Positions 1 through 31,087 of a stretch of 64,000 nt of DNA are shown in pieces. The translations under genes were made by a program, and so were the position numbers. Under the pieces are notes generated by a model. It saw nothing but the letters and a program-made list of their open reading frames with translations, did no database searches and was not told the DNA's origin. Source of the stretch: a phage; assembly GCA_022897995.1 (NCBI GenBank), contig GCA_022897995.1_4763.1; one strand, written 5' to 3'. Position 1 is the first letter of the stretch, and each line of letters opens with the position of its first letter.

Positions 1-959
1 AAAAAAACGTGTATGGTGAGGACCATGCTCAACCTGATTCGACTGGTGTTTACACTTGTCGCGTTTCGGTTGGTTTTGGTGATCATCGTGCGTCTCAAAT
101 GTCACATCCAGCAAGGGTATTAATTAGCGACAATGTTGAGATTGTGCCTAATGACTTACAGGTCACCGCACATCCTCATGATAATGACGTTAAGTATAAT
201 CAGCGTGTTATTTTAACAGCAAGATCTCAAAATAGCATTGGATTAAAACCACACATTCAATGGAAAAAAGATGGTGTGGCTATCCACGGTGCAAATTCAG
301 AGACTTTAGTAATTGAGCACGCAAAACCGTCAGATGCGGGAACTTATACGGCAGAGATCACCGCAGCAGAAAAAACGGTAACAACCAATCCAGCGGTCGT
401 TACTGTAGCAGAGCATAGCAATATCAATATCTTAAAACATCCGGTGGATGTGGTTGCAAAAGAAGGTCAAACCAATGATATTGTATTAGAAGCTCATGCA
501 GAACATGCAGACGGTGAAACCGAAGTTAATTATCAGTGGCATAAAATTAAAGATGGTGTAGACACTGAAATAAGAGATGCAACAAATAAAACTTTAGTTA
601 TCCCTCATGCACAGATCAGCAAGCAAGCTCATCAAGCGACCTATTACGCCGAGATAAAAGAAGAGAATGGACACGTTAAACATAGCGAAAAAGTTCGAGT
701 GGCGTTTACTACCGCGAAATTAAAACGCTATGTACACCCGATCCCGTGGCGTCGAACTTCCTTCCAATATCAGGGTTATTGGGTAATGGATGAAATTGAT
801 CGTTGTAACCGCGAAGGTCTTAACTGGCTTGAGGATTTTACCCACACCAAATACCCAGACGAGATCGAGACTATTGCAGCCTCGTTGCATCACTATTCTA
901 ATACTCATGTATTGGAATCTCGTAATGGTTATCTGGTTGACGGTACTCAACTATTTTAA
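1..959 (+). CDS. hoc: Hoc-like outer capsid decoration protein with Ig-like repeats (5' partial; frame open to window edge, first full codon at 3)
   Basis: No stop upstream in window; Ig-like repeats (DAGTYTAEIT); C-terminal RYVHPIPWRRTSF..WVMDEI..ESRNGY resembles the capsid-binding tail of T4 Hoc. Confidence 0.6.
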   Translation, partial: KNVYGEDHAQPDSTGVYTCRVSVGFGDHRASQMSHPARVLISDNVEIVPNDLQVTAHPHDNDVKYNQRVILTARSQNSIGLKPHIQWKKDGVAIHGANSETLVIEHAKPSDAGTYTAEITAAEKTVTTNPAVVTVAEHSNINILKHPVDVVAKEGQTNDIVLEAHAEHADGETEVNYQWHKIKDGVDTEIRDATNKTLVIPHAQISKQAHQATYYAEIKEENGHVKHSEKVRVAFTTAKLKRYVHPIPWRRTSFQYQGYWVMDEIDRCNREGLNWLEDFTHTKYPDEIETIAASLHHYSNTHVLESRNGYLVDGTQLF

Positions 960-3473: not shown

Positions 3474-3514
3474 TGATTAAATTATGATCAAAACGAAGAA
3501 AGATCTTTAGAACA
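3474..3514 (+). repeat. intergenic repeat copy A (TGATTAAATTATGATCAAAACGAAGAAAGATCTTTAGAA)
   Basis: Near-identical to 3622-3660; AAAACGAAGAAAGATCTTTAGAA also at 43137-43159. Confidence 0.6.
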
Positions 3515-3621
3515 TAGAAAATGTATCTTTGATTAATTATTAATCAATACATATTGTAACACAAATGTTATACTCCGTAGGAGTTCGCGAAGCGATATCC
3601 TTTTGTGTAGTTTTACATGTA

Positions 3622-3683
3622 TGATTAAATTATGATCAAAACGAAGACTTATCTTATAGAATAATAAAAATTTGTTTCGAACA
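3622..3683 (+). repeat. intergenic repeat copy B (extends through TAATAAAAATTTGTTTCG)
   Basis: Shares TGATTAAATTATGATCAAAACGAAG with 3474-3497 and GAATAATAAAAATTTGTTTCG with 43158-43178. Confidence 0.6.
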
Positions 3684-3799
3684 TTTATTAATCAATTACT
3701 GGAAGTGTTTTATTGCTCGCTGTGCTCGCTTCCGCTACGCGGATACTTGTGTTTGTTATTAACTTGTAGTATGATATTGCTTTCTATGGAGGAAATATT

Positions 3800-4387
3800 A
3801 TGTTTGACCAGTTACAAGATCTATTTGGAGTAAAACCACTTCGTAGATGTGCTTTAATCGGCTCTAGAAAAGCGCCTAGCGACATTTTGATAATGGCTAG
3901 TACCATTGGGAGGGTATTGTCAGAAAATCGCGTTGTAGCGCATTCTGGAGGGGCTTACGGTATGGACAATGCTTTCATGAAGTATTACGATCCAGATTAT
4001 AGAAAAATTTTCATTCCAAATTGGAAGTTTTATGACCATAAGCATAACGGTCATGATGTGATTGCATGGCAAACCTTAGAACAAAAGAATCTGGCGATGG
4101 ATGAATTAGAACACGTTTATGATAATCCTCGTTCTATACCGTTATACATGCAAAATTTATTTTCTAGAAATGTTGCTCAAGTCTTAGGTGAGACACTTGA
4201 TGACCCTGTAGATTGTGTGATATTCTGGGCGCAAGAAGTTAATGGTATTGTTTCTGGAGGAACTAGAATTGCTGTCTATGTTGCTCGTAGACATGGGATA
4301 CCATGTTTTAACTTATATCATCAAGAAAATAGATCCGCCGTCGAAAAAATCTTGGGCGGATCTGATTTGTCCTGGTTAGATATTTAG
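3800..4387 (+). CDS. DprA/Smf-like Rossmann-fold (SLOG superfamily) protein
   Basis: GGAGG RBS then ATG 3800; motifs ALIGSRKAP and RVVAHSGGAYGMD match the DprA/Smf-LOG pattern; assignment from motifs only. Confidence 0.45.
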   Translation: MFDQLQDLFGVKPLRRCALIGSRKAPSDILIMASTIGRVLSENRVVAHSGGAYGMDNAFMKYYDPDYRKIFIPNWKFYDHKHNGHDVIAWQTLEQKNLAMDELEHVYDNPRSIPLYMQNLFSRNVAQVLGETLDDPVDCVIFWAQEVNGIVSGGTRIAVYVARRHGIPCFNLYHQENRSAVEKILGGSDLSWLDI

Positions 4388-5629
4388 TTAAGCGTTGTCA
4401 ATCTCAAGCGGTGGCAGTTCGATTCCTAAAATGTAGGACATTTCTGAACGTCCAGCCATTTTACCCCAATCGTCACCCTTAATGACCTGGTGTTCTTCCT
4501 GATCAACTTTTGATGTATATGGGTTGACAGAGAGTGAATAACGATTCATAATAGCTACATGATGCTGGAAACTATTAGGGTCAATTACGCTCTTATACGC
4601 GCCAGCGCCATCGGCTTCTGTGTATGGGGAGTAGAACAGAGAACCTACACTCTCCATATCACCGATCATGTGCTTACAACCAACGAGCATATAATCGAAA
4701 GGTGTTGTCGTGTCTGCGTACACTTCCAGACCGCAACGTAGACGACCTTCGCTTAGAGCGTTGTCGGTTTCTTCCATCCATCCGGTGGATTGCAGGAGGC
4801 CAACCACGCGAGAAGACGCCAAAACGTATGTACCAGCAAAGGAGGAAGTACGCAACATTTGATTGCTCATTTCGCACGCGTAGCGGTAAAGTTCGCGAGC
4901 TTGTTTTGGTGCATCCTGAACGCTAACGAGAGAAAGTACGCCATCAGGGGTGATCCCTTTAATTTTATAGCGAGATGATACAGTGATCAACTTCTGAATA
5001 ATATCTTTGTTGATCTCTTCGGAAGCGACAGTAGCCAGAAGATCAATTACAGAGTTTTCCGAGTTGATTTGGCTTGCTTCAAGATCCTGCATTAATTCAG
5101 TGGTGAACGAGGTTTTCAGTTTACGAGAACCTACATTAACTTGCCACTTGTCAAACTGCATAGAGGTAGACGCAATTTCGGTGTTTTTATCTTCAAAGTA
5201 TTCTACCGATGCACAATCGCTATAGAAACGAATTTTGTTTGTCATTACGCCTTTAAAGATCGCAGCTTCTGGAGTTGCTGCATCTTCACCGACTGTACCA
5301 GCGGTCACAACTTCATATACAACATCGCCAGATTTGAACAATGCGCCTTCATCATAAGATTTTTCTTTTGAAAACTCTTCAATCTCTGTGCGATCACCAG
5401 CCGCGCCACCGTATGTTGCAGCAGTTCGGAAAGTCATCTGACCATCACGATTAAGATAACGTAGGCCGTACAATGCAGATACTGGTTGATCCGTTGGCTG
5501 AATTGCTACCAGATCAGAGAAAATCAGGTTGTTTACCGCGCGAGTTAATGATAATAGTTGCGGTCGCGCTGTCTGGTTAGCTACTGAGGAAGTAGATTCC
5601 CGCAACAGTTCAGTAAAAATATGAGTCAT
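4388..5629 (-). CDS. 24: capsid vertex protein gp24
   Basis: gp23 paralog by similarity, T4 position after gene 23; ATG at 5629 (MTHIFTELL..) chosen over the upstream ORF-track start; late promoter upstream. Confidence 0.85.
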   Translation of the reverse strand: MTHIFTELLRESTSSVANQTARPQLLSLTRAVNNLIFSDLVAIQPTDQPVSALYGLRYLNRDGQMTFRTAATYGGAAGDRTEIEEFSKEKSYDEGALFKSGDVVYEVVTAGTVGEDAATPEAAIFKGVMTNKIRFYSDCASVEYFEDKNTEIASTSMQFDKWQVNVGSRKLKTSFTTELMQDLEASQINSENSVIDLLATVASEEINKDIIQKLITVSSRYKIKGITPDGVLSLVSVQDAPKQARELYRYACEMSNQMLRTSSFAGTYVLASSRVVGLLQSTGWMEETDNALSEGRLRCGLEVYADTTTPFDYMLVGCKHMIGDMESVGSLFYSPYTEADGAGAYKSVIDPNSFQHHVAIMNRYSLSVNPYTSKVDQEEHQVIKGDDWGKMAGRSEMSYILGIELPPLEIDNA

Positions 5630-5666
5630 GTTTATGAATCCTGTATTTGCCTTAATGGATATATCA

Positions 5667-5674
5667 TATTTATA
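5667..5674 (-). promoter_or_regulatory. T4-type late promoter (TATAAATA) for gene 24
   Basis: Plus-strand TATTTATA at 5667-5674, 38 nt upstream of start 5629. Confidence 0.6.
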
Positions 5675-5675
5675 C

Positions 5676-5705
5676 AAAAAGAAAAGGGAATCCCGAAGGA
5701 TTCCC
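5676..5705 (-). terminator. intrinsic terminator (minus strand)
   Basis: GGGAATCC-TTCG-GGATTCCC hairpin followed on the minus strand by TTTTCTTTTT. Confidence 0.65.
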
Positions 5706-5877
5706 AAATAAAAATTACTTCTTCCTAGAAACATTATCAACGCTACGGTTAACTTTGTTTACCAGATTAATTGCATGATCAGAACGAATAATTGCATAAG
5801 CTAATGCTAACATCAATTCGTCGTATTCCTTACGAGTCATAACATAGCTGTTTTCTTTCTTACTCATGCATTCCTCC

Positions 5878-6810
5878 TTATGGAGAATTTGGGGTTAATT
5901 CAGGGAACAGCGTACCAAAACCAAAATTACCGCTAGCGTCACGCTGGAATGTCATAACAAGGTCGACATAAACCGGATCTGTAAATCTATCAAATCTATC
6001 CGACCCAATATCAACCATGAACGCTAATTTAATCTCATTAGAATTTGAGATCGCAGCGTCAGCACATGCACCAAAAATTACCTGAGTATCTTTTGCCGTA
6101 TATGCATTGACCTGTATGTTGGTTGGTTTCATTACATCGTTAGACAAACCAGATAGTTCTACTCGTCCATTAAACGACGCCAGACTTTGACCACCGCCTA
6201 GATAATGAATATGACCACCTTGTGAAGATTGTGTCCAGTCCATTAGCATAACCTTAAATCTAGCCTCAAAACGCCCTTCCACGTAATATCGACCAGTTTC
6301 AAAGTTTTGTCTAATTGGTGTCCATGTGATGTGTGGTTTTCCGCTTACAGGATCGACAAGAGTCACACCTACGGCTGGCTTAATACTGACACTATCAAAT
6401 GAACGTGATAGCCAATTCCATGTTTGATTGTCTAGGTTTGGTAATTGTGGAATATTCAATCCATCTAATCGGCTGTGTGCTCGTGCTGCTTCCGATTCTG
6501 CGGTAGTCGCTTTAGTCAGTGCATCAGTTGCTTTGCTCATGGATTGCCCTGCCGTTCGATCAGCAACGTCCGCAGTTGATTTTGCAATCTCTGCCGTTCG
6601 ATGTGCTGAACTTGCTGTTTCTGTTATTACGTCATCGCACGCAATAACAAAATCAATTACAGGATCGATCAATTGAGTGTTGATTGAGTTGGAAATTCGT
6701 TCAACATCACTTTCCATTAGAGCATTAGATTCATTTCCTGTGAAATGAGTAATTTCACCTTGAACAAAATCATTTTGCAACTTGCTGATCTTTGCTTTAA
6801 TATCGGACAT
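5878..6810 (-). CDS. hypothetical late protein, coiled-coil N-terminus plus globular C-terminus (310 aa)
   Basis: GGGGTG RBS then ATG 6810; Ala/Thr-rich helical N-terminal third; part of the insertion between genes 23 and 24. Confidence 0.6.
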   Translation of the reverse strand: MSDIKAKISKLQNDFVQGEITHFTGNESNALMESDVERISNSINTQLIDPVIDFVIACDDVITETASSAHRTAEIAKSTADVADRTAGQSMSKATDALTKATTAESEAARAHSRLDGLNIPQLPNLDNQTWNWLSRSFDSVSIKPAVGVTLVDPVSGKPHITWTPIRQNFETGRYYVEGRFEARFKVMLMDWTQSSQGGHIHYLGGGQSLASFNGRVELSGLSNDVMKPTNIQVNAYTAKDTQVIFGACADAAISNSNEIKLAFMVDIGSDRFDRFTDPVYVDLVMTFQRDASGNFGFGTLFPELTPNSP

Positions 6811-6825
6811 GAATCACCCCGCTAA

Positions 6826-8544
6826 TTATTGTGCTTGCTCTGGAAGTGCTTGTATATTTTCTATAGTAGCACCCCATTTAACGGCATTTAAACGAGCTTT
6901 GTGCATATCGTCTTCTCCGACTATTGCCGCAAAACCCTTTTTAGCGTGGAAATTCGCCCATGTGTTATATGCTAGTGCACCTACGCGTTTTGCTGTGTCG
7001 TGTTCAACTTCATCAACCATCAGCATTGTGCGGAAAGGTGCAAATGCTACATCTGGGTTATCGTCTTGTGTCCATGAACCACCATTAAACGACACCTGCC
7101 ACCTGAACATCTCACCAGACGGAATTTGATTAATTCTCAACTTTAGAGATCTTGTTTTCTGGTTTTTCTGAGTTACGTCTAGTGGAACCTGATATCTAGC
7201 CGCTTGTCGTTCTCTACCATCATTCATCCTATGCCATGCGGTAACAACAAGCATAACCGGAATTGTGTTTGATGTTTTAATAAAACTAACATCAACTAAA
7301 AGTTCCATATCATAGCTACCAGATTTAGGCGCAACCCACCAATGGTCGGCATCAGCTTGTCGATCTGGCTCTTTAATCTGTGGTGTGCATCCATAGTTAT
7401 CATGAATGACATACTTCCACGGAATGTAAAAAGCACCACCGCCAGTTCCTGGATTTGTAACTTCGAGTAGATTTTGTGCAGTGGTAAACACGCTGGACAC
7501 GCGAGGGAAAGCATAAATGGTAGCACCACCAGTGTGATCGCTGATCTGTAACCATTCGGTCCATCGATCAGTTCTCTTTGTATAGGAACGGTGATACATT
7601 ACGCCATCAATGCTTGTTGCGATCTGCAATACATGATCTTTACATGCATGAACATCTACAGAACCATGCGTTTGTGTTCCATTTGGGCGGTTTGCGGACC
7701 CCTCAAAATAACAGAAACGACCCTGTTTCGTCAAGGAATTTAGGTCTAGCGTTTCTGGCGAAATTTCCGGTAGACGTTTACCCAGACTGGTTAACATCGC
7801 CTCCTGATCACCATTTAAACCACCGCCACCGCTTCCTTCCCCGCTTTGAGAGTTCCACTCACGCCATGCACCATTGTGTCGGATACGAGAGTAAACACCA
7901 CCATCAATAGAACGGACCACTTGAAGAATGCTACCATCGACGACATATACATCTGCGGACCCCTTATTCGCCATCATTGGAGGTTTGCCATAGGTTGCAT
8001 CACCTACCGGATAGCGTCCGGGTGATGTTGTTACATCCAGATTATTAATCGGATTCGTCGTAGTCCATTTTACTTCAATTGCAGATAGACGCTGCGCAAC
8101 GTTCGCTAATACTTCTGGCACTGGAAACACTAACGATTCTTGAGTTTCATCTGAATACGTGATCTCTAGAGTCCAGTTGCGATCGTCCTCGGACAAGTTC
8201 GCTTCGATTCTAGCAATACCACGACCATTTTCGCCCTTCTCACCAGGAATACCCTGTTCGCCCTGAATAACCCAGGTCATATCGACCCATTTGGAATTAT
8301 CGTATGGAGATTGCGACGTTTTACCCGTCCATAATTGGAGTTTAGCACCACAAACAATAATTGTTTTTAGTCGCTCCAATTCTGGAAAATGGGTGTTGAA
8401 ATATGCGTCTCGTTCCCCTTCATTTTCGAAACGGTGAGTATTTTTAATTCCGCTAGGTACGTTAGTTCCGATCTGAATACCGCCACCAGAACAACCACCA
8501 CTCACGGAACCAGCATTAATGATAGCTTGTGGATTTAGCTTCAT
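6826..8544 (-). CDS. collagen-like repeat containing protein, possible fibre or decoration protein (~572 aa)
   Basis: ATG 8544 after GGGGG RBS (ORF track starts at TTG 8568); Gly-X-Y run GEQGIPGEKGENGRG; repeated motif (ILQVVRSIDGGVYSRIRHNGAWREW / VLQIATSIDGVMYHRSYTKRTDRWTEW); Gly-rich linkers. Confidence 0.6.
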   Translation of the reverse strand: MKLNPQAIINAGSVSGGCSGGGIQIGTNVPSGIKNTHRFENEGERDAYFNTHFPELERLKTIIVCGAKLQLWTGKTSQSPYDNSKWVDMTWVIQGEQGIPGEKGENGRGIARIEANLSEDDRNWTLEITYSDETQESLVFPVPEVLANVAQRLSAIEVKWTTTNPINNLDVTTSPGRYPVGDATYGKPPMMANKGSADVYVVDGSILQVVRSIDGGVYSRIRHNGAWREWNSQSGEGSGGGGLNGDQEAMLTSLGKRLPEISPETLDLNSLTKQGRFCYFEGSANRPNGTQTHGSVDVHACKDHVLQIATSIDGVMYHRSYTKRTDRWTEWLQISDHTGGATIYAFPRVSSVFTTAQNLLEVTNPGTGGGAFYIPWKYVIHDNYGCTPQIKEPDRQADADHWWVAPKSGSYDMELLVDVSFIKTSNTIPVMLVVTAWHRMNDGRERQAARYQVPLDVTQKNQKTRSLKLRINQIPSGEMFRWQVSFNGGSWTQDDNPDVAFAPFRTMLMVDEVEHDTAKRVGALAYNTWANFHAKKGFAAIVGEDDMHKARLNAVKWGATIENIQALPEQAQ

Positions 8545-8551
8545 ATAATAA

Positions 8552-8860
8552 TTACCCCCGTTTAGCAAGATACACGGTTACAGTAGAATCATTGGAAACA
8601 GATTTTACTTTTGCCCTAATAAATGACCATAATGTTTCAAACGCTCCACCATCAGTTGCATATTCATTACCATCAGCTTTCAATTCTGAAATAGTGAACC
8701 AACCTTTGCCATCTAAGGAACCTTCTAACGAGGCTTCCGCAATGACTTTTTGCCCTTCCCTTGCACCTTCTACGGTCATTTGTACTGTCATATGCGTACT
8801 ATGAACGCAGTTTACCGACGCGGAAACGGCTGGAGTTTTGGTCTTTATAAGTGTGTGCAT
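8552..8860 (-). CDS. hypothetical late protein (102 aa)
   Basis: AAGGGGAG RBS then ATG 8860; TATAAATA late promoter ~39 nt upstream. Confidence 0.55.
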   Translation of the reverse strand: MHTLIKTKTPAVSASVNCVHSTHMTVQMTVEGAREGQKVIAEASLEGSLDGKGWFTISELKADGNEYATDGGAFETLWSFIRAKVKSVSNDSTVTVYLAKRG

Positions 8861-8898
8861 CTAATTTTCGCTCCCCTTAGAATATAGGCTTGCAACCT

Positions 8899-8906
8899 TA
8901 TTTATA
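8899..8906 (-). promoter_or_regulatory. T4-type late promoter (TATAAATA)
   Basis: Plus-strand TATTTATA 8899-8906 upstream of ORF starting 8860. Confidence 0.55.
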
Positions 8907-8922
8907 ACGGGATATAATACGC

Positions 8923-8951
8923 AAAAAGGGAAGACCCTTTCGAGTCTTCCC
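8923..8951 (-). terminator. intrinsic terminator downstream of gene 23 (minus strand)
   Basis: GGGAAGAC..GTCTTCCC stem followed on the minus strand by T5. Confidence 0.65.
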
Positions 8952-9021
8952 TTTGGAATTAACACTTTACACTGTCATAAGGTTTATGATAAGTCTGGTA
9001 TTGCACCCGACCGGAGTTTAA

Positions 9022-10605
9022 TTAGCAACCTTTAACCCATACACGGCGGAAGTATGCGTTTTTACCTACGCTGTCTTTGCTCAACATACCGGAGGTGATG
9101 CGAGCGGAAGGTGCCTGGGATTTGCTGTCTGCAAACGGGTTAATACCGATGCCATAGCGAGTCTTGAAGCCCAGAACCGGATGGAAAGACTGCGGATCAG
9201 TTGCACGCAGCGGAGTCAGAGCAACATACGGTGCATAGTAGATACCAGCATCCATTTCGTTGTCGCCTTTGTAACCTACAGTGAAGTAGTCCTGACGAGC
9301 ATACTGGTCGATGAATACTTTATACTTACCAGCCAGAACACCAGCGAAAACTGCTTTAGTGGTGTCGGTGTTCAGACCCTGTGCAGCACCCTGCATAGCA
9401 ACACTGATACCCTGATCAGCAGAAGCCAGAATGTTTACAACGTTACGGGAAGCGATAACAAAGTTACCAGCACCGCGACCAGTCTGACGAGCGATTTCAG
9501 CAGCTTCTTTGTCGATCTGGTAGATCAGAGATTTGAAGGATTCACCAGCCCAACGAGCACCGCGAGTATCGATCGGGTCTTGCAGGTCAAATACACCAGC
9601 TTTAGAACCAACGGTCTGAGTCATGCCAGTCTTACCAACCTGAGCGGTAAAGTTAATTACGTCAACGATTTCACGGTTGATTTCCAGCAGAACTTCGTTA
9701 GCCAGAATAGCATTCAGTTCAGCGTCAGCATCCATACCGTGTACAGCACGCAGATCCTGCGCAACTTCGATAGAATAACGAGCTTTCAGTTGGCGAGATT
9801 TCGCTTCAACTACCTGTTTGTCAATACGCATTGACATTTCGTTCCACGGGTTACGCTGAGAACCGTTAAAGCCTTCTTGCAGTTCCGCGATGGAAGTAGC
9901 CATACCAGCAGCAATTTCAGCCAGTTCTCCTTTTTCGATCAGCTTCATTACGCATTCATCGAGGGTATCGCCGGAAATAGTTGGGGTTACGGTAGAACCT
10001 TTAACGTTTTGCAGATATGCAATACCAGTTTCTTCGAATACATGATACACGATATCACCAGCATTAATACCAGTGCTTGCCGTCAGTTTCTGGAATGCAG
10101 TACCAGTCGGAGAGCTTGCTGTTGCATCTTTAGCTGCCAGAGAGCTATGATAAACATCAGGCGCAAACATTGGGTGGAATGCTTCGCGAGCATTACTTGC
10201 CAGAGGGTCGCCGCCGTATACAGAACGGATTGCGAAGATCTGGCTAGTCGGGGTGCTCATCGGCTGAACGCCACAGATATCAAATGCGATCAGGTTAGGA
10301 ATAGCACGGCGAACCATACCAATAACAGCCGGACCTACGTTGGTGATTGCACCAGTAGTTTGACCTGCGGCGATTTTATTTGCATCGTAACCGTGGTCGC
10401 CAGCAACTTCGGCTTCTGCGATAAAGCCACCGAATGCTTCAACAACTTTTTCATCCTTATAGATCGGGTCTACAGCAAAGTCCGCTTCCTGAGATTCCAG
10501 AATTTTAGCAACCAGTTTCTGCTTAGACGCAGTTGCGATTTCCGGCAGTTTTTCATTTTCCAGCAGCGGGGACCATTTTTCCATCAGTTCTTTGGTAGTT
10601 TTCAT
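9022..10605 (-). CDS. 23: major capsid protein gp23
   Basis: 527 aa; length, composition and position (after 22, before 24) match T4 gp23; classic late promoter upstream. Confidence 0.9.
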   Translation of the reverse strand: MKTTKELMEKWSPLLENEKLPEIATASKQKLVAKILESQEADFAVDPIYKDEKVVEAFGGFIAEAEVAGDHGYDANKIAAGQTTGAITNVGPAVIGMVRRAIPNLIAFDICGVQPMSTPTSQIFAIRSVYGGDPLASNAREAFHPMFAPDVYHSSLAAKDATASSPTGTAFQKLTASTGINAGDIVYHVFEETGIAYLQNVKGSTVTPTISGDTLDECVMKLIEKGELAEIAAGMATSIAELQEGFNGSQRNPWNEMSMRIDKQVVEAKSRQLKARYSIEVAQDLRAVHGMDADAELNAILANEVLLEINREIVDVINFTAQVGKTGMTQTVGSKAGVFDLQDPIDTRGARWAGESFKSLIYQIDKEAAEIARQTGRGAGNFVIASRNVVNILASADQGISVAMQGAAQGLNTDTTKAVFAGVLAGKYKVFIDQYARQDYFTVGYKGDNEMDAGIYYAPYVALTPLRATDPQSFHPVLGFKTRYGIGINPFADSKSQAPSARITSGMLSKDSVGKNAYFRRVWVKGC

Positions 10606-17065: not shown

Positions 17066-20379
<3,314 letters not shown>

Positions 20380-21256: not shown

Positions 21257-21993
21257 AAATCGGCGAAAGGTGAACCCTTGCCATTAATAGGGTCAAACGG
21301 ATCAATAAAATCTTGTCCTTCGCTTTTAAATTGCTTATCTTCTTTGTATTGATCTAAGTTAATGTCTGTTAATCCATCAAGATTAGTGATCGGTGCAAGA
21401 TCCAGATCCGCGAACTCATCAACATTAATTCCCTCATTGCGTTGTAATTCTGGTCGCAATTCCTCGCCGCTATACACGAATTTCTCTGCAATAATTTTAC
21501 GCATGGCATTTTTGCCAGCCTGAAAAAACGGCTGATATGGCTCGACGTAATTGATTTCAAAGAGATCATTACTCATTGGAATATAAATCAAGTCACCTGA
21601 TTTTGGCTCTTGATCATCTACTTGATGCTTGAATAGGTTGGGGTTAACCGTAAAAGTTAGTTCATCATTGGCTTGATAACCGAAACTAGAGAAGAAGTTA
21701 CCAGCGCCTTCATACCCATCAAATGAGTTAATATAAGCCGCAAATTTCCATGCTTTAGTAAATTTGCTTTGAACATCCTCGCCAAAGATCATGTCTGGTT
21801 TGACAAATTCACGAGGGATGTAATATAATTCTACACCTCGCATCTGAATAGCTTCGGCGACCATAACGTCGGCTAACGTCTGAGTATTTGTATATTTGTG
21901 AAAATTCACATAAGGATTAAGAATCTCTGTTTGTCGTGTATTCTCATAATCCTTTTGCGATTCAAGGCGAGCAAAAAGAGTGTTGTTAAACAT
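21253..21993 (-). CDS. 14: neck protein gp14
   Basis: 246 aa; position between 13 and 15. Confidence 0.8.
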
Positions 21994-22029
21994 ATGTTAC
22001 TCCAAACGGGGGAATACTCCCCCAATAAA

Positions 22030-22962
22030 TCAAATCATGAGGATGCCGAACGGAGGATCTAATAATTCTAGTTCTTGTCGCAATTTCTCAATGTCGGCGC
22101 GTGCTTCTTCAATGATTCGGATACCATCAACAGTGACACCACCGGGCAATTGCAGACCTTGATGTTTAGCCATGATTGACCCCCAAACCTCCTTAGTGAA
22201 GGCGGTAGCCATATCTTTCACCCAACGGTTATTATATGCACCCTGTTTGTTTTCTCTAATTGGTCCCATTCCTGCCGAAATCCCGCTCAATCCTGCGGTT
22301 GGGTTATCATAAACGGCGCTAATCCCGCCAGCGGTAGAACATCCTCCCGCATGAGCATAGCCAGCAACCGCTCCCATCATATCAGGAACGTCTACATAGC
22401 TTTTAACATACAATTCAACTACAATGAGATCACCTTCTCGAAAATTACCAGTGATCTTAAGTTGTCCGTTTGCGCTATTATACCAATAATCTGGCAGCGG
22501 ATTGAGCATATTTTGCATAGTGGCTCGATAGCTCATAAGCTGTTCGAAATATCCTAGATCACCGCCCATTGCATTTGGACCATAAAATTTACTACAGCCA
22601 GATCCTAAACCGCCATTTACACCCGCTAAACCCAACAGAAAGTCAGTAAACCACGGATAAACGGCAGTACCATCCATCGTAGCCGCGCTACCTACGTTTG
22701 TTCGAATAATTTTAGTTACTGCGAATATCCCAGAGTCGCTTAAATCAAATACCCCGTGTTGCGCTTGCTCTGCACTAACACGAAATACTTTATATCCTTT
22801 ATTCACACCATCGAAATGATATTCCCCATAGAGTTCTAGTGCTCTCTGAATACAATCGTAAATCTGGTCTTCTGTGACTTCTACGTTAATTACTGGTGCG
22901 CCTAAACGACGTAGAATAGCGTCTTTTAGTTCTCTTGGGTTATTGGTTACATATCCTGACAT
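22030..22962 (-). CDS. 13: neck protein gp13
   Basis: 310 aa; position between wac and 14; length matches T4 gp13. Confidence 0.8.
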
Positions 22963-23008: not shown

Positions 23009-24772
23009 TTATACCGGAGAAATTCCAAAGAGGAACTCTTTAATTTGTAGCGGTTGCGCTAATGCTTCTTCGGATACGCCCTTAATACGAATATCGATCC
23101 GGTCGCCCTTTTCAATATTTAGGAAAGCACTGGTAGAATAGCTAATTAATTCATCAGTTCCATAATGACCATTTCGTACCTCATGTACAATCTGACCATT
23201 TTTAGCAATACCGACTACGAAAGTAGCGTTATGTGTCGCATGTACAGAACAACGGAAAATACAACGGAATAAGCCTTTGTCGTTAACCGTAACAAGAGAT
23301 TCACTCTTAACCATTCCACGCACAGGAACTTCTGCGGTCATATCGTTTAGCGGGATTCCTTTGTATTGATCTTGTTCGTCGAGAGTAACATCAATCTGAG
23401 CGGTGTTTTTAAATGCACCAGCCGCCCACGCAACTTGGACCCATTCTCCGTGTTTGCGGAGATAGTGGAACCCATCATCAGGAACGTCTGTTACCTTGCT
23501 TGCATTTGACGTGCTCAATGCCTTAACAGTTTTCACGATCCCATCTTGTTCAAGCTGCGTGCTTCCTTCTGGATTGCCGTACATGTCGCTTGACAGCTTA
23601 ATAACCCCAGCGGTTAGACCAGAATCGCGATCGCCGATCATTTGCTCGATATCCTGTACGCTAGCTTCTAGTCGTCCCTGTGTATTTTCTACAATTTTTA
23701 GACGACCTGCGATAGTATGACGCTCACTATCAGTACCAACGGTGTTAGTTATTCGTGCAACCTCACCACGTAGGCCATCAGCACCACTAACACCGACAAT
23801 AGATTTAAGATCTACAAATTCCCGTTCTTGATTAGTCAATCGATAATCAATACTTCCAGCGGCTTGAGGATTGCCGATCTTATTTTCCAGAAGAGTTAAA
23901 CGAGGACGGATACCAGCGTCAACTCCGTTGACTTCATCATTAAGCTGTGTATAATCAGATTGTAGCTTAGTTACTTTAGTACCGATATCAGGAATTGATT
24001 CAAATAGAATCGCTTTCTTTACTTCCTGAACTTCGTTTGATATACTAGCGATATTGCGAGTGTTTGTGCGAAGACGAAGATAAACATTGTCATGTGTTGC
24101 TAGTGATGTGTCGCCTAGCTCGCTTCGCATTTTGTTAACTTGTTTTGTTAGCTCTCCAACGTCAGAATCTTGCCAGTCGTTTTCTAGTTGGTGGATTCGC
24201 TGACCGTGGTTGTTTAATGCTTCCGTATTCTGGATAACTCGATATTTGATACCGGAACCGGAACTACCTGGATCTGGGGAACCGTTGATATTGAAATTAG
24301 GGAAAGCGCCCAATTCTTGTTTGATGAAAGAAATATCATCATATATTGTTCGTGTGCTCGGATCTGCTGCCGGACGAACACCAATTTTCTTTCCTGTCTC
24401 CGCCAGTTCATCTACTGTGGTTTGTAATGTCCTTGAAGTTTCTCCTAAATTTTCAGACTCAACCTTTGCGATAGTCTGATTGACAATATCAATAATACTA
24501 CCATCAGCAACCGCGCCTAAAGTAGTTTTAATATCATTAACTGCTGTAACAACTTCGTTAACTTTTGTTACCGTTGTCTTAGAATTTTCATCCAGACGAA
24601 CAATATTTTCTTGAATCGCATAAGGGGCGCGGTTAAGCGTCCCCTCGTGTCCTGTTTCTGTGGTTGCTGCGCTTAGACATTCACCATTTTTAATCCAGCT
24701 AATAGAATGTTGTCCCTCTCCAGGGACACCATCGACGTTAGGGATCTTTCGAATGTTTAATTGTTCGATCAT
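23009..24772 (-). CDS. wac: fibritin (neck whiskers) with internal foldon-like motif and extra C-terminal domain
   Basis: 587 aa; long coiled-coil; foldon-like DGFHYLRKHGEWVQV about 140 aa before the C-terminus; T4 position between 12 and 13. Confidence 0.8.
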   Translation of the reverse strand: MIEQLNIRKIPNVDGVPGEGQHSISWIKNGECLSAATTETGHEGTLNRAPYAIQENIVRLDENSKTTVTKVNEVVTAVNDIKTTLGAVADGSIIDIVNQTIAKVESENLGETSRTLQTTVDELAETGKKIGVRPAADPSTRTIYDDISFIKQELGAFPNFNINGSPDPGSSGSGIKYRVIQNTEALNNHGQRIHQLENDWQDSDVGELTKQVNKMRSELGDTSLATHDNVYLRLRTNTRNIASISNEVQEVKKAILFESIPDIGTKVTKLQSDYTQLNDEVNGVDAGIRPRLTLLENKIGNPQAAGSIDYRLTNQEREFVDLKSIVGVSGADGLRGEVARITNTVGTDSERHTIAGRLKIVENTQGRLEASVQDIEQMIGDRDSGLTAGVIKLSSDMYGNPEGSTQLEQDGIVKTVKALSTSNASKVTDVPDDGFHYLRKHGEWVQVAWAAGAFKNTAQIDVTLDEQDQYKGIPLNDMTAEVPVRGMVKSESLVTVNDKGLFRCIFRCSVHATHNATFVVGIAKNGQIVHEVRNGHYGTDELISYSTSAFLNIEKGDRIDIRIKGVSEEALAQPLQIKEFLFGISPV

Positions 24773-26175
24773 TATTGTACCCTTATCATGTAGTTTAATG
24801 CAAGGCTTTTAACGCGAGTTTCGCCAGACGTTCTAACCTGTCTTGCGCTGTCAAAGTTAACAATACTACCCCAATCATCGCCGCCACCGTTTTTATAGTT
24901 CGTGCTCCATTGTCCTTGTGTAATTGTGAATGCCCCACCAGTCCATCCGCGCCAACGGTTAGCAACAGGAAAGTTACCTGTCATGTGTTGCATGGTGTCA
25001 TCTTGATATGTGCCATATCCACGGCCTGGGTCTAGTCCTCGACCGTGGTCGCATCCTCTAGCAACAAGCCCTCGCATATCGGGTAGAGCAAAGTTGTCTC
25101 CGCCGTCTCCGCCGTAAGTGAAACCGATTCGTGAAAATAATACTGGATATTGGTGTTTATTTAACCATTGACCGTTACAGATTTTGAATTGTGCGTGGTC
25201 GAAACTGTTAAATGCTGTAAGAATGATGCCACCAATAGGCATACAAAGACCATCCAGTTCATTTTTAATGATAAACTGGTTTCCGTCGCCTCCGCTATGA
25301 CGATAAACATCTCCGCTAACGACACCACCGCTTAGAGACAATACACGAGCATTTGCAGATAGCGCCGAGTTAGGCTCACCAGAACCTGGATTATCTGTTA
25401 GCTTAACAACACCGAATTGTCCAGTGGTTGCTTTAGTGTTTGCAAATTTTTGTGCTGATACTACTACTGTGTTGTCATTTCCGTCAATCATTTGTTGGGA
25501 TGACGCAATTTTAACAGTACCCGCCTGATTTTCATTTGCTCTTGCGTTGGAAAATGCATATGGGCTAACGGCAAATCCTTCTCTGATAGTCCCAGCAAGC
25601 GTTTGTTGGCTTGTCGCCAGTCTAACTAAACCCTCACGGGCTTCTGACGCGGTATTTTGCTCTGGAATCAATCCAGGAACAATCTGAGCAATAGCAGCGT
25701 GCATCTTTTTAGGCGTAACTGCCATAGTGTCGTCGCTACCGATTTTTGCCGCGTCCATAGAACAGATTTTAATTGTACCCTGTACGGTTTCCGTTGCCTT
25801 CTTCTTCGCGAATACGTGGGTTAATGTATCAGGACCAATTGCAATATTTGGAGTATCACCCATAGCTTCATCGTTATTAGCATAGCGAGTGATCCCTTTA
25901 ACAAATTTTGTTGCGTCCGGTCTTGACAGCTTAACAGCCAATGTTTTTGGGGTAACAATTTTAGTTCCATCCAACCCATCATCTACTTCTTTTTGAGTAG
26001 CAATTTCAGCAATACCCGCTGTTTCTTCGGTTGCCGTTGGAAGACCTGCAATAGCAAACCCCTGAATAGCGGCTAATGCCGCTTGTACATTTTTTATATT
26101 GCTAGGCCAATTTCCGGTAGGGTCAAACTTAACATACTGTGCATCGTCTTTTACGTGATTAATAGTGTTATTCAT
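24772..26175 (-). CDS. 12: short tail fiber protein gp12
   Basis: 467 aa; repeated ..TEETAGIAEIATQKE.. type N-terminal repeats; C-terminal collar-like ..FALPDMRGLVARG.. Confidence 0.85.
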   Translation of the reverse strand: MNNTINHVKDDAQYVKFDPTGNWPSNIKNVQAALAAIQGFAIAGLPTATEETAGIAEIATQKEVDDGLDGTKIVTPKTLAVKLSRPDATKFVKGITRYANNDEAMGDTPNIAIGPDTLTHVFAKKKATETVQGTIKICSMDAAKIGSDDTMAVTPKKMHAAIAQIVPGLIPEQNTASEAREGLVRLATSQQTLAGTIREGFAVSPYAFSNARANENQAGTVKIASSQQMIDGNDNTVVVSAQKFANTKATTGQFGVVKLTDNPGSGEPNSALSANARVLSLSGGVVSGDVYRHSGGDGNQFIIKNELDGLCMPIGGIILTAFNSFDHAQFKICNGQWLNKHQYPVLFSRIGFTYGGDGGDNFALPDMRGLVARGCDHGRGLDPGRGYGTYQDDTMQHMTGNFPVANRWRGWTGGAFTITQGQWSTNYKNGGGDDWGSIVNFDSARQVRTSGETRVKSLALNYMIRVQ

Positions 26176-26185
26176 AATTTACACC

Positions 26186-26830
26186 TTACGCAATACGCTT
26201 AAAATAAAATAGTGTTGAACCAAATTTTTCTTCCGTTCCCATTCTGGACCATGCACCATAACCATAACGAGCAGGGGAATTTATTTCCCCACGAACGCTA
26301 ATACCATATTTTTCTACGACCGTTGCTTCGTGTGCATTTGAATCAATATACTGAATCTCTATTTTATCATTACCAGTACCTTTCCGTTCAACTTTAGAGA
26401 ATAAGATACTTTTGTCTTTCAATTCAGTAAATTTTTCTGCAACTGCCTCACACAATGCAAGATTCGATGTTCCAACATTAACAACAAATGGATAACCCAA
26501 AACTTCAATTACAACTTTTTTCGCGGCTGGATCGTGTTTATTTGTTACCGTTCCAGTGAAGGACAGAGTTTCTATTTGTCCTGCCGCTTCCGGTGGAGTT
26601 GAATTTGTAGTTACCAATACATCACCAACATTAAGCATAGAAATGCTATACAAATCATCAATAGCTGATTGTACGTTATTAATAAAAGAACCTTTGCGAG
26701 ATTGGTCTACGTTTAATCCACCGATTGGGCGAATGTCACCAATAATGGGGTCTTTCGACCCCGGATCGTATGAAATGAATGCTGCGTCGCTAGAAAATAC
26801 GCTTGCTTTAGAACGTGTTTTAGAAATCAT
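26186..26830 (-). CDS. 11: baseplate wedge subunit and tail pin gp11
   Basis: 214 aa; synteny 10-11-12. Confidence 0.8.
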   Translation of the reverse strand: MISKTRSKASVFSSDAAFISYDPGSKDPIIGDIRPIGGLNVDQSRKGSFINNVQSAIDDLYSISMLNVGDVLVTTNSTPPEAAGQIETLSFTGTVTNKHDPAAKKVVIEVLGYPFVVNVGTSNLALCEAVAEKFTELKDKSILFSKVERKGTGNDKIEIQYIDSNAHEATVVEKYGISVRGEINSPARYGYGAWSRMGTEEKFGSTLFYFKRIA

Positions 26831-26831
26831 A

Positions 26832-28634
26832 TTAACCTACCCTTAACCAGCGATGAACGGTGCGATATGGAGGAAGAATACCCATCATTGATGGATCAGC
26901 ATTTCCAGAATTAACTTTTACGATATCCTCTCTATATTTCGTAAACGCTGGACCTGCCGCATCAGGATCAACTTGGCAGCCACCAATGATAATTGACCCT
27001 GTATCGTCTTTCACCAAAACACGATCGCTGGATTGTAATTCAGGAATCATATCTTTCTTGATTTGATAGGCAACTTCACCACCAGTACCACCAGCGGTGT
27101 GTGTAGGTTGTCCATGAATATCAAGATCGTTATTGTTTAATGCAAAATTCTGGTCGCTGGCATCGGAAGACCAACCAGCAAGAAATTCTCCTTCCGCATA
27201 CCGAACCCAGATACCAAACCCCATATAGGTCGCTGGGTTAGCTGGGTTATGTGCGTTTTCGTATATCGTGCCGACCGGATGGAAAATATCAAACAGTGAA
27301 TATATATCCATAATTCGACCTGAATACTCTTCTGCTGGACGAGTGTTTTTCTGGCTAGGATTCTGGAAGTCTGTATATTCAATTTGTTTTGTTAAATTAA
27401 CTTCGTCTTCATTATTGAGATAAATCTTGTCTGCTTTTTCTTTAATTCCGCCGACACCATCCCATTCTAATAGAGTTCCGATATCGTTATTAAACCAACG
27501 AATTGTTATAGTATCTCTATTGTCCAACGCTTTAGCTAATTTAATCCCTGTTACAATGCTATTCTCATCAAATACCAGTGAATAATCTTCTCCAGACTGT
27601 ACCCACTGACCGCCAGCAAGTGCGCAACTCTCTTCGGTTTCTCCGTCAGCACCTTCACAGACAAACGAAGGAAGATCAGCATCACCAGCTTTAATCATTT
27701 GAGTACCATTTATTAATAACTCAAATGAATTTGGGTTAATTATATCACGTTTACTAACGCCCAAATCAGCATTGGTAAATTCTTTTTTCTTCGATAAATC
27801 ACCCACCCACACTTCACCAGGAATAGTTTCGAGTGCTGTCATTCCGGTATCATATACTCTAATTGTGTGCGTGATATAACTAGATCGGAATGATGCAATC
27901 CCGTCCATATATGTAATAATTTGAACGGTGTCACCAGCCGAACAAGGAAAACGAAGTTTTATGCTTTTGCCATCAAGTTCAACAAGTGATCCATCCTCAC
28001 CGATTGAACCGTAGTTAGAGTCATTACTAAAAGACTTGCCATAATATAAAAGGTTTCCTCGATAATATACTTCAACATTTCGAGTGTTATATGTGTTAGA
28101 ACCAAATACATTAGGGAAATCTGTTTGCCCTTCTGTGGCAATATAAACTTCCTTAGCTACTGTGCTTAGATCAGACGTGGTGATCGTGTCAACTCGCTTG
28201 TTTTCGATATATTCCCAGCGTCCAGGCGCACAATAAACCAATTCAACATCCATGAAATCTTTATACAATTCTCGGTCGATTGGTGATCCTTTAATTGTAT
28301 CGCCTTGTGCTGGCTTAAGTGTTACGTTATGAGACGCCCAAGAGCGCCAAACATCACGAAGTTTAATTGTCTTGTTATAATCACCAACTCCACCTTTAGG
28401 AAGCTCTACCGACACCGCGTTGTTTGTTGTATTGATAGCCCACGCATCACCAAAATTAGGCTTTAATAATGGATCTGTGTGCGTTTTCCATGCACCGGAT
28501 GCGTGGGGGGTATCGCCATCCCCCAGCTTAGTATAAAGTTCAGAAAAGTTGTCGTTGATCTTTTGACCGCCTTTTCTTAGATAATCACCCGTACCGTCAT
28601 CTACAACGTTACCGATATTAATTAATTGTTTCAT
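26832..28634 (-). CDS. 10: baseplate wedge subunit and tail pin gp10
   Basis: 600 aa; N-terminus GNVVDDGTGDYLRKGGQKINDNF shared with gp9/gp12 N-termini as in T4. Confidence 0.85.
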   Translation of the reverse strand: MKQLINIGNVVDDGTGDYLRKGGQKINDNFSELYTKLGDGDTPHASGAWKTHTDPLLKPNFGDAWAINTTNNAVSVELPKGGVGDYNKTIKLRDVWRSWASHNVTLKPAQGDTIKGSPIDRELYKDFMDVELVYCAPGRWEYIENKRVDTITTSDLSTVAKEVYIATEGQTDFPNVFGSNTYNTRNVEVYYRGNLLYYGKSFSNDSNYGSIGEDGSLVELDGKSIKLRFPCSAGDTVQIITYMDGIASFRSSYITHTIRVYDTGMTALETIPGEVWVGDLSKKKEFTNADLGVSKRDIINPNSFELLINGTQMIKAGDADLPSFVCEGADGETEESCALAGGQWVQSGEDYSLVFDENSIVTGIKLAKALDNRDTITIRWFNNDIGTLLEWDGVGGIKEKADKIYLNNEDEVNLTKQIEYTDFQNPSQKNTRPAEEYSGRIMDIYSLFDIFHPVGTIYENAHNPANPATYMGFGIWVRYAEGEFLAGWSSDASDQNFALNNNDLDIHGQPTHTAGGTGGEVAYQIKKDMIPELQSSDRVLVKDDTGSIIIGGCQVDPDAAGPAFTKYREDIVKVNSGNADPSMMGILPPYRTVHRWLRVG

Positions 28635-29560: not shown

Positions 29561-30400
29561 TTAAATGTCAAACAAGTCTGAGAGCGTCCCAGACGCTGTT
29601 TCCTGTTTCGGTAAGGTAATCTCCTTACTTTCTTCTATTTGTTCGTTAGGACGCGATTTAGGCGCTTCTACGGCTTCTTTCTCGTAATACCGAACCTCAA
29701 CCACTTCTGTTAAAACGTTGGTATTATGCCATTCATCGCGATAGACTGATGTATCGATCCCACATCCGGCATAAGTCACCAAACCAGTTTGTTTGCTCCA
29801 TTTTAGATATTTATTAGACTTCACTGATTCATCATAATAAGGTCTGCCGGAATAGGCAAAACCAGCGGAACTAGAAGGAACAATAAAGTAACCTACATCG
29901 GCAAACTTCTGGCCTAACGTCATAACCTTAAATTCAAACTCACCGCCAGTATATTCAAATACATCCTTTGTGTTGGTAGTATTGATTTTCCCGAAAGGTG
30001 GATTGCTAATTACAACATCGAATTTCTCGTTTGACTCAAATTCGAATACATCGCTGGTGATCCATTCTGCCTCCGGTAATAGTCGCTTGCCAATCCGCGC
30101 AAATTCTGGATTGAGTTCGACGCATACGATCTTTTCTGGCTTACAACGATGCAACATACAAAAAGATAAACGACCGATCCCAGCACAAAGGTCCAATACT
30201 TTTCCGGTGCAGTGTGCGTCAATGGTAAAATCCCAGGCAAGCCATTCTGGGGTAAAGAATGCACCGGAACCACCTAGCCCATCGCCATGATAGTTATTAT
30301 AGCAAAATTCTTTTTCTTCAAATGTCAATGGACGATCTGAATTAATCAACTCCATTGCTCGGTCGTGTAATTTTTGTTCTTGTTTAGAAAGTCGTGCCAT
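29561..30400 (-). CDS. putative gamma-class N6-adenine methyltransferase (TaqI-like motif order)
   Basis: 279 aa; GAFFTP (motif X), VLDLCAGIGRL (motif I, SAM binding), VISNPPFG (motif IV); start overlaps upstream stop (TAATG). Confidence 0.55.
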   Translation of the reverse strand: MARLSKQEQKLHDRAMELINSDRPLTFEEKEFCYNNYHGDGLGGSGAFFTPEWLAWDFTIDAHCTGKVLDLCAGIGRLSFCMLHRCKPEKIVCVELNPEFARIGKRLLPEAEWITSDVFEFESNEKFDVVISNPPFGKINTTNTKDVFEYTGGEFEFKVMTLGQKFADVGYFIVPSSSAGFAYSGRPYYDESVKSNKYLKWSKQTGLVTYAGCGIDTSVYRDEWHNTNVLTEVVEVRYYEKEAVEAPKSRPNEQIEESKEITLPKQETASGTLSDLFDI

Positions 30401-30732
30401 TATTTAACCTTTGCTGTGACGGTAACGCTATGCCCCAGATAAGTATGAGACATAAAGAATACATAGTCCTTAAATTGCTGATTCTTACGAATCCATCGCT
30501 TCAATTTTCGAATGCAAGTTATACGATGGTCATAATTAGAATAACTAAATTCAATACCCTGTTTCATCATCTCGTGCATTTCTTCGTATGTGTGCCATTG
30601 GTTATCATGTTTACAAAACCAATGAGTACCATAGAGTTTAGGATCTTGTGCACGTAGACCATAGTAATGCTTTTGCATTGGGAACTTAGCTTTATTCATT
30701 GTGTAATGCAGTTTAATATTTACGCGTGCCAT
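30400..30732 (-). CDS. hypothetical protein (110 aa), cassette gene 2
   Basis: GGAG RBS then ATG 30732; translationally coupled to the methyltransferase gene. Confidence 0.5.
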   Translation of the reverse strand: MARVNIKLHYTMNKAKFPMQKHYYGLRAQDPKLYGTHWFCKHDNQWHTYEEMHEMMKQGIEFSYSNYDHRITCIRKLKRWIRKNQQFKDYVFFMSHTYLGHSVTVTAKVK

Positions 30733-30977: not shown

Positions 30978-31006
30978 AATTTATCCTCCGTTGTTTAGAT
31001 GTGAGC

Positions 31007-31034: not shown

Positions 31035-31046
31035 CACCCAAAATGT

Positions 31047-31076: not shown

Positions 31077-31087
31077 AAATCATACAC

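Follow-up and report, generated by a model that had tools for sequence, protein, structure and literature searches.

A predicted late operon between capsid genes 23 and 24 of a Krischvirus encodes candidate accessory fibre proteins

Several described systems carry, one part at a time, features that we find together in a gene cassette lying between capsid genes 23 and 24 of a phage contig (NCBI GenBank assembly GCA_022897995.1, contig GCA_022897995.1_4763.1; the whole stretch analysed, 64,000 nucleotides (nt), is referred to here as the window). The cassette comprises three open reading frames (ORFs), ORF102, ORF572 and ORF310. Tandem knob domains like those of ORF572 are found in the R1 and R2 pyocin fibres (6CL5, 6CL6 and 6CXB), in gp144 of phage K and in the towers of the receptor-binding proteins (RBPs) RBP1 and RBP2 of phage 812. 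In the phage 812 baseplate these two RBPs are trimers built of repeated six-stranded 'tower' domains, and a small two-sheet beta-protein, the 'coupler', is encoded between the two RBP genes and couples their products. With TNF/C1q trimers and the Bd2133-type fibre (8OND), ORF572 shares a C-terminal jelly roll, predicted to lie beyond its collagen-like segment, and the folds closest to it are obligately trimeric. The PRD1 vertex spike P5 and Bacillus BclA presumably resemble ORF572 as well, in joining a collagen-like stretch to a TNF/C1q-like head. T4 fibritin (Wac) and the phi29 head fibre gp8.5 are trimeric coiled coils anchored to the virion by their N-terminus; comparably, ORF310 and its paralogues combine a conserved N-terminal motif, a trimer-type coil of very variable length and a C-terminal domain. 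Hoc of T4 and RB49 is comparable to the cassette as a whole, being dispensable, late-expressed, proposed to have an adhesive role at the surface, and encoded in the neighbourhood of the head genes. In T4 itself, the interval between genes 23 and 24 is the site of the segD endonuclease gene.

We consider it likely that ORF572 and ORF310 are accessory adhesin fibres borne on the virion. The individual parts are known (knobs, TNF/C1q-like head, coiled-coil stalk, lectin-like tip). Their combination, the placement in a late operon between genes 23 and 24, and the loss of an ancestral module together with a second Hoc are not described in the literature searched; papers that mention the carrier phages contained no discussion of the cassette genes, and the carriers annotate all of them as hypothetical. 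Compared with the pyocin and phage 812 fibres, ORF572 shows a sequence likeness below significance (E 0.38) and an unrelated N-terminus, and its gene lies among the capsid genes of a phage of the T4 type, between genes 23 and 24; unlike the pyocin fibres, it ends in a TNF/C1q-like jelly roll rather than in a shaft and lectin domain. It differs from TNF/C1q fibres in its low identity (8–15%), in the brevity of its collagen run and in the two knobs intercalated between run and head. ORF310 has no sequence similarity to the phage's own Wac and is predicted to carry a lectin-like beta-sandwich instead of a foldon. None of ORF102, ORF572 and ORF310 matches Ig, PKD or Hoc capsid-binding domains, whereas the two neighbouring hoc genes match strongly; Hoc is a monomeric string of Ig domains, and the cassette proteins are predicted to be trimeric fibres. 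The cassette shares its genomic slot with T4 segD but has no GIY-YIG or other nuclease domain and differs in content and evolution.

Over positions 5600–9000 the window is 97.9% identical to Escherichia phage UPWr_E1, which places it in Krischvirus (RB49-like Straboviridae). The interval between genes 23 and 24 and its borders contain the following features.

9022–10605, minus strand: gp23 (Pfam Gp23, E 4e-119)
8922–8942, minus strand: hairpin plus T-run resembling an intrinsic terminator, ending gene 23 (sequence scan)
8899–8906, minus strand: putative T4-type late promoter of the cassette operon, TATAAATA, 38 nt upstream of the ORF102 ATG
8552–8860, minus strand: ORF102, first cassette gene (phrog_16217)
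6826–8544, minus strand: ORF572, predicted multidomain fibre or receptor-binding-type protein (stop codon 6826–6828; AlphaFold2 (AF2) and Foldseek)
5878–6810, minus strand: ORF310, predicted second fibre-type protein (AF2 model)
5715–5867, minus strand: ORF50, fourth and last ORF of the unit (phrog_16600)
5686–5705, minus strand: terminator-like hairpin closing the cassette operon, annotated as a terminator in phage G2248
5667–5674, minus strand: gene 24 late promoter TATAAATA, the downstream boundary (sequence match)
4388–5632, minus strand: gp24 (Pfam Gp23, E 6e-88)

With TATAAATA ahead of its first gene, no internal terminator and a hairpin at its end, the block has the sequence-level marks of a T4-type late unit. 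On this layout we read it as a late-promoter-driven operon between terminators, as the initial annotation had proposed; the three genes counted there become four, because a 50-amino-acid (aa) ORF at 5867–5715 had been overlooked. The four ORFs are tightly packed, with spacers of 7–15 nt and Shine-Dalgarno sequences (a strong taaggagg precedes the ORF50 ATG), and TATAAAT is absent from the spacers and genes of the unit. In the whole window TATAAATA is not enriched (9 occurrences found, 6.2 expected). The copy upstream of ORF102 is better explained as a promoter than as a chance match because its spacing is conserved across otherwise diverged spacers: it is kept 37–39 nt before the start in the window, in phages G2248 and JK32 and in metagenomic contig L008, although the rest of the spacer has diverged in L008, whose ORF572 homologue is only 38% identical. 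Contig L009 has TGCTAAATA in its place ahead of the ORF102 homologue. A hairpin precedes the promoter in JK32, L008 and L009 too, with a different stem sequence each time. For ORF572, the ORF list gives a TTG start at 8568; we prefer the ATG at 8544 because all 21 homologues begin MKLNP and the same start is annotated in G2248.

None of the four ORFs could be assigned to a functional family from Pfam, PHROGs, NCBIfam or PDB sequences, the searches giving only PHROGs of unknown function, an alanine-zipper match at threshold and chance-level matches. ORF572 itself had no Pfam, NCBIfam or PDB sequence match, and its 22 homologues are all of phage or metagenome origin. Its AF2 model, a monomer built with 21 homologues, has a mean predicted local distance difference test (pLDDT) score of 62.5; residues 110–148, 162–232, 262–336 and 343–530 form confident domains, and the N-terminus and linkers are poorly modelled. 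The low pLDDT of the linkers is compatible with an obligate oligomer, without proving one. The modelled protein divides as follows.

8263–8544, minus strand: residues 1–94, N-terminal module with a Gly-rich start followed by RF.N..ERDAYF...LQLWTG...W; proposed anchor
8218–8262, minus strand: residues 95–109, short collagen-like run GEQGIPGEKGENGRG (GEQ-GIP-GEK-GEN-G(RG))
7843–8064, minus strand: residues 161–234, predicted knob domain 1 (AF2 beta-domain 162–232, pLDDT 71–81)
7759–7842, minus strand: residues 235–262, Gly-rich hinge SGEGSGGGGLNG plus a short helix (245–257), joining the knobs
7525–7758, minus strand: residues 263–340, predicted knob domain 2 (AF2 beta-domain 262–336), a duplicate of knob 1
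6955–7524, minus strand: residues 341–530, predicted TNF/C1q-like jelly roll (pLDDT ~80–92; nine modelled strands); proposed distal binding head

The N-terminal module, modelled with low confidence by AF2, is among the best-conserved parts of the family (identity 0.64–0.76 per 20-residue block). The least conserved stretches are parts of knob 1, residues 421–480 of the head and the C-terminal tail. A search with residues 1–150 gave 81 cluster representatives. The module, spanning residues ~30–108 (RF..xxERDAYF...LQLWxG...YDNxxW..WVIxG), recurs, usually at the N-terminus, in proteins of 98–2935 aa. In P0042, P0046 and P0049, 6 to >15 Gly-X-Y triplets directly follow a module of the ORF572 type; two proteins, P0049 and P0044, score on the Pfam model for collagen, and several module proteins match 'tail fiber' PHROGs via the collagen region. 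Stand-alone proteins of 98–123 aa that consist of the module only occur in Vibrio phage 14E30.2 (L004 5932–6300), in 77 other Vibrio phage records and in P0073. These vibriophage proteins (Gly-rich start, F...ARD.W...W.LW.G...YDN..W) are encoded among small genes of ~45-kb vibriophages.

The peptides quoted in the initial annotation are all present, namely GEQGIPGEKGENGRG (residues 95–109), SGEGSGGGGLNG (residues 235–246) and the LQVV.../LQIA... segments. Its description of a collagen-like protein can be kept in part. The Gly-X-Y motif exists, and G95, G98, G101 and G107 are invariant, with G104 nearly so, among 21 homologues; however, with only 4–5 triplets the run gives no match to PF01391 and ORF572 does not enter the Collagen family. 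Since distant relatives hold true repeats at this point, we regard ORF572 as collagen-like in position only. The suggestion of a twice-repeated motif reminiscent of fibre or knob domains was borne out more fully. Knob 1 and knob 2 are 31% identical over 65 aa (E 3e-11), and Foldseek matched the model to the R1 pyocin fibre (6cl5, E 8.7e-8) and to the Bdellovibrio Bd2133 fibre. Foldseek also matched it to chains 9euf_5 (E 1.8e-9) and 9euf_8 (E 9.9e-9) of the phage 812 baseplate, which may be, but need not be, the RBPs of that baseplate. By sequence, the best match of the family profile to the PDB was the R2 pyocin knob (6ct8 and 6cl6), which aligns to residues 169–238 with a common NLD..G.Y...P...V...Q...Y.R...W..W pattern at E 0.38–0.45, a value that is not significant. 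ORF572 is therefore assigned to the knobs by fold and not by sequence family. In R-pyocins, too, a helix-plus-turn element connects the knobs (PMC6116203). Overall, the models support the reading of ORF572 as a protein of the fibre or receptor-binding type whose knob domain is duplicated.

The distal domain had not been recognised in the initial annotation. Dozens of the top 50 Foldseek matches of ORF572 belong to the TNF/C1q superfamily (E 1e-5 to 3e-4; template modelling (TM) score normalised to the target, 0.45–0.73) and include TL1A, CD40L, TNF, APRIL, BAFF, FasL, 4-1BBL and the C1q domain of Caprin-2. Judging by domain size and strand count, these matches would belong to residues 343–530. 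The head had no match at the level of sequence.

ORF310 has the predicted architecture of a second fibre. The AF2 model, again a monomer (mean pLDDT 76.3), consists of one long helix (residues 33–117) followed by a beta-sandwich (136–291), in agreement with the coiled-coil N-terminus and globular C-terminus proposed initially. Within it we distinguish an N-terminal motif (~14–60), a putative alanine-zipper coiled coil (~62–117) and a putative lectin-like beta-sandwich head (~136–291), whose nearest folds are the receptor-binding tips of pyocin and AP22 gp53 and the receptor-binding proteins of lactococcal bIL170 and of PSA. The coil resembles the trimeric alanine zipper of Lpp, scoring 23.1 bits in Pfam at a cut-off of 23.1, E 0.0046 with a PDB Lpp-56 profile, and 20.9 in NCBIfam against a cut-off of 43. 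ORF310 starts MSDIKAKISKLQ, with neither a hydrophobic leader nor a lipobox, and is a 310-aa protein with a 170-aa beta-domain, as against the ~60–90 aa of Lpp/OprI lipoproteins. Because a lipoprotein signal is lacking, we regard the likeness to Lpp as compositional and confined to the coil.

Paralogues of ORF310 number one to three per cassette and range from 303 to 982 aa. Most cassettes have one; JK32 has two (307 and 614 aa), and L008 has three coiled-coil genes (454, 982 and 382 aa). The N-terminal motif F.QGE...ITG...ALME.D...IS..IN..LI.PVIDF...D is common to ORF310, the 614-aa protein of JK32 and the 454-aa and 982-aa proteins of L008 (31–42% identity, E 1e-10 to 1e-24), which differ in coil length as well as C-terminal domain. 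Such a pattern would be expected of alternative fibres docking on one site. The JK32 614-aa fibre gene lies at L003 1549–3393 (L007 40422–42266), and the enlarged cassette of L008 spans 3498–9061. The 382-aa gene of L008 lacks the ORF310 motif; its product shares a C-terminal domain with the 982-aa protein.

ORF102 belongs to phrog_16217 (E 2.4e-21), a PHROG of unknown function, and had no PDB, Pfam or NCBIfam match. Its homologues (98–104 aa) are encoded first in the cassette in all ten genomes and contigs examined. They share a mean column identity of 78% and the invariant blocks EGS.DG.GW.TI, YATDGG.FE.LW and a C-terminal AKRG. By analogy with the phage 812 coupler we propose that ORF102 may be an adaptor or assembly factor, which is the weakest part of our model. 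ORF50 (phrog_16600, E 8e-38) corresponds to Phi1 ORF162 and is kept in all Krischvirus, including those free of the cassette.

All three cassette genes are real and under purifying selection. Pairwise ratios of nonsynonymous to synonymous substitution rates (dN/dS) are 0.09–0.14 for ORF102, 0.10–0.13 for ORF572 and 0.09–0.15 across the three, compared with 0.07–0.22 for gp23 and gp24, and no single domain of ORF572 exceeds 0.29. For the same phage pairs, synonymous divergence (dS) is 0.9–1.5 in the cassette and 0.27–0.41 in the flanking capsid genes; the higher values in the cassette suggest exchange of diverged alleles among related phages. Horizontal acquisition from outside was also considered and is unsupported, since the guanine-plus-cytosine (GC) content resembles that of the structural genes (cassette 43%, window 41%, gp24 and gp23 44–48%) and synteny is conserved.

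The comparison of the 23–24 interval called for by the initial annotation shows that the whole block is present in 6 of 59 related phage records (UPWr_E1, SSG23, SFHK24, Brandy, G2248 and JK32). The other 53, among them RB49, Phi1, JSE and GEC-3S, match the flanks only and have a 2.8-kb deletion that spares the promoter and the final 162 nt of ORF310. Phi1 illustrates the junction. It matches window positions 9060–8852 (terminator, late promoter and first 9 nt of ORF102) and then 6039–5600 (last 162 nt of ORF310, ORF50, terminator and gp24 promoter), with 123 nt between the flanks, 35 of which weakly match the interior of ORF572. Phi1 'ORF161.1' (45 aa, phrog_20809) is an in-frame C-terminal remnant of ORF310 (E 4e-22). 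With the promoter still in place and ORF310 still represented by an in-frame 3' fragment, the cassette-free state represents a deletion scar and not an empty insertion site, and the cassette is therefore ancestral and dispensable. In metagenomic contigs L008–L015, the cassette lies between gp23 and gp24 in every one examined, down to 38% identity. From this pattern in the sequences, the first three genes appear to be a facultative accessory-fibre cassette ancestral to RB49-like (Krischvirus-type) phages. This ancestral cassette, deleted in RB49 and Phi1, was not foreseen in the initial annotation.

A second gene shares this distribution. Window positions 1–959 (plus strand; coding part 3–959) encode the last 318 aa of a second long protein of the Hoc type, with many Ig and PKD domains, which runs past the window start; the full-length protein has ~846 aa (845–847 aa in G2248, JK32, L009, L011, L013 and L014). 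The ordinary hoc gene adjoins it at 994–2235. The second Hoc-like gene (Hoc2) is ~5 kb from the cassette, and both are present in 10 of 10 cassette carriers (six phage records and four metagenomic lineages whose contigs extend far enough) but in none of 53 non-carriers. All 53 cassette-free Krischvirus records retain only the last 113 nt of it.

In the reading we prefer, ORF572 and ORF310 would each form homotrimers built from a conserved anchor at the N-terminus, a stalk that trimerises and a binding head at the far end. The stalk of ORF572 would consist of the short collagen-like run and two tandem knobs, with the TNF/C1q-like jelly roll as its head; that of ORF310 would be the alanine-zipper coiled coil, bearing the lectin-like beta-sandwich. 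ORF102 could act as a small adaptor or assembly factor for these fibres. The fibres would be made late alongside the capsid proteins and mounted on the particle, the favoured site being the head, beside two Hoc-type proteins. There the fibres, without being needed for infection, might act as auxiliary adhesins and increase adsorption or retention in natural habitats through reversible binding to surface glycans or to other structures of the envelope. We infer the trimeric state, presence in the virion, location on the head, ligand and benefit from the evidence above. Head and tail are both plausible locations, to which we give nearly equal weight, the head being slightly preferred; the hints in its favour are the constant position of the cassette between genes 23 and 24, even at 38% identity, and the co-inheritance of Hoc2. 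The complete proposal, that a late operon supplies ancestral, facultative trimeric fibres to the head as auxiliary adhesins, is accordingly a tentative one, in which we place somewhat less than even confidence. A more specific version is doubtful. In it, trimeric receptor-binding capsid fibres would stand at the gp24 vertices (a trimer on a pentamer, an arrangement known from adenovirus and PRD1) or at quasi-three-fold sites and, together with the long Hoc2, would form a capsid adhesion system that was lost as a unit in the laboratory lineage of RB49, Phi1 and JSE.

Several observations weigh against the proposal, in particular against a site on the head. No virion proteomics or imaging of a carrier phage (UPWr_E1, SSG23, G2248 or JK32) was found in the literature. 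The structural neighbours of the cassette proteins come from tail fibres and from the receptor-binding proteins of baseplates, none of them being a known head protein, and the AF2 models are monomers of moderate confidence in which the anchors are the worst modelled parts. A faint, unconfirmed precomputed match of the ORF572 homologue P0007 to PF27308 (XkdV_N, the N-terminus of the PBSX tail fibre) also points to the tail. The capsid proteins offer no evident partner: gp24 is 99% identical in cassette-free Phi1, with no cassette-linked residue, and the one strongly variable part of gp23 does not track the cassette. This hypervariable segment (residues 132–256; window 9838–10212, minus strand) holds 40 of the 44 differences from Phi1 and has 72–87% nucleotide identity to every other Krischvirus (73% to UPWr_E1), compared with 96–98% in its flanks; its nearest variants occur in cassette-free phages. 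The five gp23 positions that separate Phi1 from carriers lie in or near it, and the segment looks like a surface region undergoing diversifying or mosaic exchange. Krischvirus already carries Hoc on its hexamers (PMC10385173). Finally, Hoc2 and the cassette may co-occur just because they are physically linked (~5 kb) and the deleted clade goes back to one ancestor; given this linkage and the one junction seen for each deletion, shared ancestry can explain the association.

The same trimeric fibres could instead sit on the tail, at the baseplate periphery, the neck or the whisker collar, as auxiliary receptor-binding or side fibres that widen host range, for example to O-antigen or capsule strains. 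We regard this as nearly as likely as a site on the head, if less likely than not. All informative structural neighbours are tail-fibre or baseplate proteins (pyocin, phage 812, AP22 gp53, bIL170 and PSA), the PHROG matches of the ORF310 coil and of the distant relatives are labelled 'tail fiber', and the XkdV_N match points the same way. The phage 812 coupler, encoded between two RBP genes, provides a parallel for ORF102. Against this, the cassette in every case occupies the interval between genes 23 and 24 and is nowhere near genes for tail fibres or the baseplate. The baseplate and neck proteins gp6–gp11, gp13–gp15 and gp53 are equal in length in carriers and Phi1, and variants of gp10–12, wac, gp14 and gp18 do not follow cassette status, wac varying in every pair. 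When the cassette N-termini were compared by phmmer with all 266 window ORFs, including wac, gp12, gp9–11 and the gp34-like ORF, only self-matches were obtained.

Genes 12, 11 and the 3' part of 10 (window 24772–28634, minus strand) form a mosaic block: the window and G2248 have in common gp11 and gp12 variants that are only 72–73% identical to those of Phi1, and their gp10 is 89.5% identical. JK32 carries a Phi1-type gp10–12 block (96–99.5%). Exchange of this short-tail-fibre/lipopolysaccharide-receptor module is independent of the cassette. Between its genes 13 and 14, Phi1 carries a homing-endonuclease gene, segC (L005 25648–26232), that is absent at window ~21993–22030. The first 160 residues of Phi1 gp14 differ by ~7% from gp14 of the window, G2248 and JK32, three proteins that are nearly identical to one another; this is compatible with co-conversion beside segC.

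A different explanation, which we consider unlikely, is that the cassette products are made late and never join the virion, acting as soluble adhesins freed at lysis to mask receptors or debris, or as factors acting on the envelope of the infected cell. The dispensability of the cassette would fit this, as would the stand-alone 98–123-aa module, found in Vibrio siphophages among small genes that look non-structural. It would not readily account for the recurrence of an anchor-stalk-head architecture with conserved N-termini in two different proteins, and the late promoter and position inside the structural block are as for virion fibres. By eye, no signal peptide, lipobox or transmembrane segment is present in these proteins. 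That the block is a selfish mobile insertion equivalent to segD, or a set of spurious ORFs, is very improbable and was rejected: the slot is that of segD on the established T4 map and presence varies among close relatives, but searches of every ORF against Pfam, PHROGs and NCBIfam gave no endonuclease, integrase or transposase domain and none of the resemblance to non-structural enzymes that the initial annotation had named as evidence against its reading, and the low dN/dS (0.09–0.15), synteny down to 38% identity, GC content of 43%, similar to that of neighbouring structural genes, and deletion scar with promoter and in-frame ORF310 fragment speak against it.

Insertions of other kinds are present elsewhere in the window. 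Gene 17 (large terminase; 17069–19885, minus strand) encodes a gp17 of 938 aa, compared with 607 aa in Phi1. The difference is a 331-aa in-frame insert that splits Walker A (QLGK|TTAV), ends ...THN followed by Thr and matches LAGLIDADG_3, which most likely makes it an intein that carries a homing endonuclease. Gene 17 is also interrupted in JK32 and contig L009. A DNA methyltransferase gene (29561–30400, minus strand) and two small ORFs (30400–31088) lie between baseplate genes 8 and 9. They match Phi1 ORF140, ORF142 and ORF143 and represent another non-structural insertion in a structural block.

RB49-type phages serve as a reference group in T4 biology and find wide use in therapy cocktails, yet their reference genomes (RB49, Phi1 and JSE) are deletion derivatives with respect to the cassette. 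If the cassette proteins are virion fibres, natural Krischviruses hold two extra receptor-binding-type proteins and a second Hoc, and adsorption, host range, retention in mucus or biofilm, and immunogenicity could all change. Receptor prediction, which is currently based on gp37, gp38 and gp12, ignores these proteins. The predicted succession of N-terminal module, mini-collagen, two knobs and TNF-like head would add a new fibre architecture to atlases of receptor-binding proteins. Should the fibres be located on the head, no trimeric head fibres would have preceded them in the T4 superfamily, and the natural, isogenic-like pairs of phages with and without the cassette make the case tractable.

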